This document shows positions 51,058-51,264 of a DNA stretch of 64,000 bases, in pieces. Under the pieces are notes generated by a model that was given only the letters and a program-made list of their open reading frames with translations, was not told where the DNA came from and did not search any database. Positions within the stretch are counted from its first letter, which is position 1. Every line of letters begins with the position of its first letter. The stretch is from Escherichia coli (GTDB lineage Bacteria > Pseudomonadota > Gammaproteobacteria > Enterobacterales > Enterobacteriaceae): the NCBI RefSeq assembly GCF_003334355.1, contig NZ_QOWP01000002.1, one strand, 5' to 3'. The position numbers and the translations under genes are program-made.

Positions 51058-51264
51058 ATGAATTTTATTCGACAGGGATTAGGCATCGCCTTACAACCAG
51101 AGTTAACGCTGAAACGCATTGCAGGTGAATTGTGTTCCGTTCCTCTCGAACCAACTTTCTATCGACAGATTTCGTTGCTGGCTAAAGAAAAGCCGGTAGA
51201 AGGCAGTCCACTGTTTTTACTACAAATGTGCATGGAACAATTAGTGGCGATTGGAAAAATTTGA
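51058..51264 (+). pseudogene. yfaH: LysR-family regulator C-terminal fragment (yfaH-like remnant)
   Basis: 68-aa ORF resembling only the C-terminal substrate-binding end of LysR-type regulators (..FIRQGLGIALQPELTLKR..); no N-terminal HTH domain upstream. Confidence 0.5.

Follow-up and report, generated by a model that had tools for sequence, protein, structure and literature searches.

The closest described counterpart of the locus considered here is yfaH (b2238) of Escherichia coli K-12. In the curated record of strain MG1655, it is a pseudogene of 207 nt located at 2349687-2349893, between inaA (b2237) and glpQ (b2239). The gene has been replaced by a Tc cassette to provide a linked marker in the transduction of gyrA mutations (PMC2714960), and it was among the qPCR targets in a CpxR screen, where transcript changes were reported (PMC9600279). 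The latter result suggests, at most, that transcription of the region is possible. A literature search yielded only incidental uses of this kind and no functional study of yfaH, and no ribosome-profiling or proteomic evidence for its product was found in that search.

The second counterpart is an intact gene pair in the inaA-glpQ interval of E. coli O157:H7 and of the strain Z30. It consists of a 396-aa MFS gene on the minus strand and a divergent LysR gene of 292-299 aa on the plus strand (in O157:H7 and Z30, LysR proteins WP_000176738 and WP_000176734, MFS protein WP_000660231), with a shared intergenic region of 151 bp (5218-5368 in Z30 locus coordinates). Based on Pfam, the intact LysR protein includes HTH_1 at residues 3-63 and LysR_substrate at residues 88-267 (model positions 2-188). 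In NCBIfam, the pair matched generic LysR and MFS models and no specific equivalog. A LysR-type regulator typically controls the divergent neighbour from the shared intergenic region, and we infer that the regulator, where it has since been lost, controlled the MFS gene. It should be noted that the LysR gene of Z30 has a 1-bp deletion near its 3′ end (Z30 locus 6240-6268), which shifts the frame. The Z30 protein ends in ESGKFDMRQDGA (299 aa) instead of VVSGKI (292 aa), and its frame enters the terminator hairpin.

The window analysed in this work is a stretch of 64,000 nucleotides of an E. coli contig (NZ_QOWP01000002.1). The original prediction had described an orphan 68-aa ORF between inaA and glpQ in this window and had read it as the C-terminal effector-domain end of a LysR-type regulator without an HTH domain upstream. 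An ORF beginning with ATG was indeed found at exactly the proposed position, within the E. coli nrdB-yfaE / inaA / glpQ-glpT region, and it is yfaH (Table 1). In a BLASTP comparison with the intact LysR protein of O157:H7, 60 of the 68 residues were identical (88%, E 3e-40) over residues 225-292 of 292, so the LysR similarity on which the earlier reading depended was detected. At the DNA level, the remnant and the intact LysR gene share 92.6% identity over 257 nt, and the homology begins 36 nt 5′ of the ATG, at 51022. No HTH-coding sequence was found upstream of the ORF, as had been stated; the DNA there is the 3′ end of an MFS gene on the other strand. This second stub of 34 codons was absent from the earlier reading. 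It has no start codon and gives no ORF of at least 30 aa in the program-made ORF list.

Domain searches with the 68-aa ORF alone gave a weak match to Pfam LysR_substrate (i-E 0.004, residues 2-44 against model positions 144-189 of 209) and one match in NCBIfam, to NF007272, a 68-position model named 'hypothetical protein'. Since these matches are sub-significant or self-referential and thus not decisive, the comparison with orthologues was used instead. The remnant contains neither HTH_1 nor a complete LysR_substrate domain, both of which belong to a functional LysR-type regulator, and its descent from such a regulator follows from its sequence homology to the intact protein. As for NF007272 (PRK09729), this 'equivalog' model was evidently built from the yfaH pseudogene fragment. 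Against it, the intact LysR protein of 299 aa scores 140.7 bits, with a cut-off of 139 bits, and the model can therefore put a misleading name on real LysR regulators.

The annotation of a K-12-like strain by PGAP contains two abutting partial pseudogenes, which coincide with the two stubs in Table 1. The minus-strand one is named 'hypothetical protein, missing N-terminus', and the plus-strand one 'LysR family transcriptional regulator, missing N-terminus'. The ORF is thus an already annotated pseudogene and hence known.

Table 1. Features of the inaA-glpQ interval and its borders, in window coordinates.
Feature	Coordinates	Strand	Basis
inaA	50193-50843	-	
inaA upstream intergenic region, unaltered by the deletion	50844-50922	-	Collinear with Z30, 97% identity
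MFS 3′ stub, 34 codons and stop, translated as YLLGALLVVVAGGIYALQMKGKSGVKLVVAKEIH	50923-51027	-	PGAP pseudogene; matches C-terminus of intact 396-aa MFS protein
Deletion junction, single copy of CAGATAAA	51022-51029	.	Alignments; identical in all ten deletion alleles sampled
Full LysR-gene remnant, 80 codons and stop, residues ~213-292 of intact protein	51022-51264	+	PGAP pseudogene coordinates; alignments
68-codon ORF with ATG start, yfaH (b2238) of K-12	51058-51264	+	Last 68 LysR codons
Perfect 10-12-bp GC-rich hairpin between LysR stop and convergent glpQ stop	51272-51297	.	Fold z-scores -4.5 (+) and -5.7 (-)
glpQ (stop at 51306)	~51306-52382	-	

The lesion was located by alignment of the window with the intact locus of Z30. 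Window positions 50193-51029 are collinear with Z30 locus positions 3296-4133 (97.0% identity), and 51017-52440 are collinear with 6001-7422 (96.1% identity). Both alignments overlap at the octamer CAGATAAA. This octamer occurs twice in the Z30 locus, 1,879 bp apart, at 4126-4133 within the MFS gene and at 6005-6012 within the LysR gene. The window has thus lost 1,879 bp between direct repeats of 8 bp, of which one copy was kept. The deletion took away approximately 362 of the 396 MFS codons (about 90% of the gene, its 5′ part), all of the promoter region between the divergent genes and LysR codons 1 to ~212. The divergent intergenic region falls within the deleted segment, so the LysR stub has also lost its own promoter. 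To judge from the junction, the deletion may have arisen by illegitimate recombination or by replication slippage.

These alignments changed one part of the earlier reading, according to which the missing N-terminal part of the regulator would have lain where the inaA promoter region is now. In fact, the segment 50844-51029 is collinear and 97% identical with the intact-locus strains, and the missing part of the LysR gene lay approximately 0.6-1.9 kb more distant, on the far side of the MFS gene. The hint at an old rearrangement at this junction held in that the event is old, but the event itself was a plain 1,879-bp deletion with collinear flanks.

The distribution of the locus was assessed in 5,426 complete E. 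coli genomes. A megablast search with the segment 50844-51305 recovered the whole segment, in the deletion state of the window (1,879 bp), from 3,105 of them. The intact MFS and LysR pair was present in 1,213 genomes, and 1,058 had neither gene and only a spacer of ~200 bp between inaA and glpQ. Together, these three main alleles account for 5,376 of the 5,426 genomes. About 50 genomes contained other lesions, for example IS1-associated ones; in the strain GDSC2227PM, at positions 4081-5552 of its locus, IS1A abuts a truncated MFS gene and the LysR gene is absent. Counting the intact and empty sites, the ORF is missing from about 2,270 E. coli genomes. Carriers of the deletion allele include K-12 derivatives, BL21(DE3), W, O111 and O121. 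Ten deletion alleles (95.5-100% identity) were aligned, and all ten had one junction in common, which points to a single origin.

The empty allele keeps ~100 bp upstream of inaA, of which ~15 bp belong to the MFS 3′ end; the next ~100 bp are largely unalignable to the window. In these genomes, the segment 50940-51260 is wholly missing and a hairpin-like sequence beside glpQ is retained. The empty allele is presumably an independent, larger deletion. The absence of both stubs from 1,058 genomes indicates that they are dispensable.

Two records labelled E. coli 042 were found to differ at this locus. The larger one (NC_017626.1, 5.24 Mb) gave a match to ORF positions 6-57 only, and the smaller one (NZ_CP042934.2, 4.69 Mb) carries the standard deletion allele; this discrepancy may be a labelling problem or may represent a further allele. 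In some E. coli, an extra 356-aa gene is present between the LysR gene and glpQ (6711-7781 in O157:H7 locus coordinates). Searches of the O157 copy against NCBIfam, Pfam and PADLOC gave no match. The sequence at the upstream junction of this gene accompanies the intact pair in O157 as well as the 1,879-bp deletion allele in other records (P24_WM1, NZ_CP042934.2). The extra gene and the deletion were found in all four combinations, which suggests recombination at the locus.

An intact orthologue at this position in other Enterobacteriaceae, which had been proposed as a check, was sought by scanning one genome per species, and it was found in Escherichia whittamii, cryptic Escherichia clades, Kluyvera and Pseudocitrobacter. 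In E. whittamii, Escherichia sp. E1V33 and MOD1-EC7003, the LysR orthologue and the MFS gene lie directly after nrdB-yfaE(-inaA), with 93-96% identity. At the same site, two Kluyvera species and a Pseudocitrobacter MAG have the LysR orthologue (63-68% identity) with the MFS gene. The glpQ-glpT genes follow the LysR gene in E1V33 and E. whittamii, the two Escherichia loci whose sequence reaches past LysR. The presence of the pair at the same site in outgroup genera means that the intact arrangement is ancestral and the state of the window is derived. For the same reason, a recent insertion of the pair was rejected.

The Kluyvera loci have the MFS gene directly after yfaE and no detected inaA homologue, but inaA is present at this site in Pseudocitrobacter, so its occurrence here also varies among genera. 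A 3.5-kb contig of a 'Collinsella sp.' MAG (JAIJJM010000334.1) showed 98-99% protein identity to an O157-type locus (MFS, LysR, the extra gene and the end of glpQ); this contig almost certainly comes from E. coli and was mis-binned.

The evolution of the stub was assessed on the 80 retained LysR codons, which were compared between 10 deletion alleles and 7 intact copies. Seven codons differ consistently between the deletion alleles and all the intact copies, and all seven differences are non-synonymous (Y to C, H to Q, P to A/S/stop, I to M, S to N/K, L to Q, and T/A to S/R). The affected residues are invariant or nearly so in intact orthologues from E. coli to E. whittamii. The I to M change (ATC/ATA to ATG) created the apparent start codon of the 68-aa ORF: the codon is ATG in 10 of 10 deletion alleles and encodes a conserved Ile in 7 of 7 intact copies. 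According to the Nei-Gojobori method, dN/dS between the deletion alleles and the nearest intact allele was 0.79-1.20 (79 codons, ~15 substitutions), in contrast to 0.02-0.12 for the same 79 codons among well-diverged intact copies. The stub therefore evolves neutrally, on counts that are small and a contrast with the intact copies that is consistent.

Secondary damage has also accumulated. The strains 19AR0656 and GCM39 have a 1-bp deletion inside the ORF, which PGAP labels 'frameshifted', and among 43 full-length matches sampled at even spacing, three, including that of E. coli W, were 206 instead of 207 bp long. In other lineages, stop codons were observed in the LysR frame 5′ of the ATG. 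The ORF is still open in 8 of the 10 sampled deletion alleles (in ~93% of matches as judged by length). However, an open frame of 68 codons is expected under neutrality over so little divergence, so its retention is uninformative rather than contradictory.

Based on the above results, the earlier view of a decayed regulator gene is borne out by a syntenic intact orthologue, by neutral evolution and by the curated K-12 pseudogene, and we have very little doubt that the ORF, the pseudogene yfaH, is a remnant without function that was left by the 1,879-bp deletion in an ancestral MFS-LysR pair. The remnant is orthologous to the end of the intact regulator, the limits of the deletion are exact to the octamer, the ancestral state is the intact pair, the three alleles are distributed across the population as described above, and the constraint on the stub is relaxed. 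The features by which a pseudogene is recognised were all observed: a syntenic intact orthologue with an identifiable lesion, relaxed constraint with secondary mutations, and the loss of its own promoter. We infer that the stub is neither translated nor functional.

The course of events can be reconstructed as follows. The ancestral Escherichia inaA-glpQ locus carried the MFS gene on the minus strand and the divergent LysR gene on the plus strand. A single event of illegitimate recombination or slippage between the two copies of CAGATAAA would then have excised 1,879 bp. Two back-to-back 3′ stubs were left over, 80 LysR codons on the plus strand and 34 MFS codons on the minus strand. Having neither DNA binding nor a promoter of its own, the LysR stub has subsequently drifted neutrally, and the ATG is one of several substitutions that all the sampled deletion alleles carry and all the intact copies lack.

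Among the other explanations, the one that fares best, although we consider it highly improbable, is that the stubs persist as cis-elements needed by the neighbouring genes, with sites for inaA activators in the MFS stub and a terminator for glpTQ at the end of the LysR stub. The DNA would then serve regulation while no longer coding for a working protein. The hairpin between the two convergent stop codons forms a strong fold on either strand; the intact-locus strain Z30 has exactly the same hairpin sequence, and the E1V33 and E. whittamii loci contain a related one. The hairpin is probably a shared bidirectional terminator. In addition, the intergenic region between inaA and the MFS gene is only ~80 bp long, so sites controlling inaA could reach the MFS 3′ end. 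However, the hairpin is located outside the ORF, and the segment 50940-51260 is missing from the 1,058 genomes with the empty allele, which means that the bulk of both stubs is dispensable.

A scan for promoter and terminator consensus sequences over 50780-51340 called no sigma-70-like promoter and no terminator. In Rfam, searched over 50100-51400 at a permissive threshold, no RNA family exceeded its gathering score. A REP-type palindromic element was observed at 50109-50184, between yfaE and the 3′ end of inaA, as a sub-threshold match to naRNA4 (34.4 bits). Also, a long spurious ORF upstream of nrdB (48524-48760) has a translation of the RIRH/LIRPT type, which is typical of REP/BIME clusters.

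Still less probable is the exaptation of the stub as a small protein, YfaH (68 aa), translated from the new ATG and perhaps acting, for example, as a free C-terminal LysR subdomain that hinders other LysR regulators from oligomerising. The ATG in all ten sampled deletion alleles, the ORF that is open in most of them and the transcript changes reported for yfaH (PMC9600279) are consistent with such a protein, as is the existence of an NCBIfam 'equivalog' model for the 68-aa product. In the window and in K-12, a weak SD-like motif, AGGCGG, is also located 8 nt 5′ of the ATG. However, this motif varies and is AGTCGG, AGTAGG or AGTCAG in other deletion alleles, no promoter-like site was found in 50780-51340, the ORF is absent from the roughly 2,270 genomes counted above, and yfaH could be replaced by a Tc cassette as a linked marker (PMC2714960). 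The dN/dS of about 1 and the frameshifts in some lineages, including E. coli W, together with the variable SD-like motif, the lack of a promoter and the 1,058 empty genomes, argue against a conserved independent small protein, an outcome that would have contradicted the view of a decayed gene. The combination of purifying selection with a conserved start and ribosome-binding site, expected of a small-protein gene, was not observed. It is accordingly very doubtful that the change of Ile to ATG gave rise to a translated free-standing piece of the LysR C-terminus that has been retained in most A/B1-type E. coli.

The least credible explanation, a rearrangement such as an inversion, a translocation or an insertion of inaA into the regulator gene, draws on nothing beyond the position of the stub next to the inaA upstream region and is refuted by the flanks, which are collinear and in the same orientation as in the intact-locus genomes with the missing 1,879 bp as the sole difference, and by inaA, which occupies the same place in the intact, deleted and empty alleles.

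The preferred reading, a remnant left by deletion, has little biological weight in itself, as it concerns an ordinary gene remnant that is already annotated. It provides a clean and well-dated case of gene loss via microhomology-mediated deletion and a polymorphism in which a single E. coli locus exists in three states (intact, partly deleted and wholly absent). In practice, it would be a mistake to regard YfaH as a protein, and any study of the substrate of the lost MFS/LysR pair needs strains that retain the pair, such as O157:H7.

Compared with yfaH of K-12, the window has the same locus and the same 207-nt ORF, and nothing of substance is different. The inaA-glpQ region (462 bp) is 99.6% identical to that of the K-12-derived strain DH5a. 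The window, which is not from K-12, matches the strain 504239 at 100%, and residue 20 of the ORF is R, as opposed to S in the K-12-like strain 5A. The intact pair of O157:H7 and Z30 represents orthologous DNA at the same chromosomal site, with the last 68 residues of its regulator 88% identical to the stub. Unlike this pair, the window lacks HTH_1 and the promoter region, together with the greater part of the effector domain and ~90% of the MFS gene. Finally, pseudogenes formed by deletion between short direct repeats show the features that were found here, namely perfect microhomology (8 bp in our case) at both breakpoints with one copy retained, followed by neutral drift and secondary frameshifts; the locus does not differ from them and is a textbook case.
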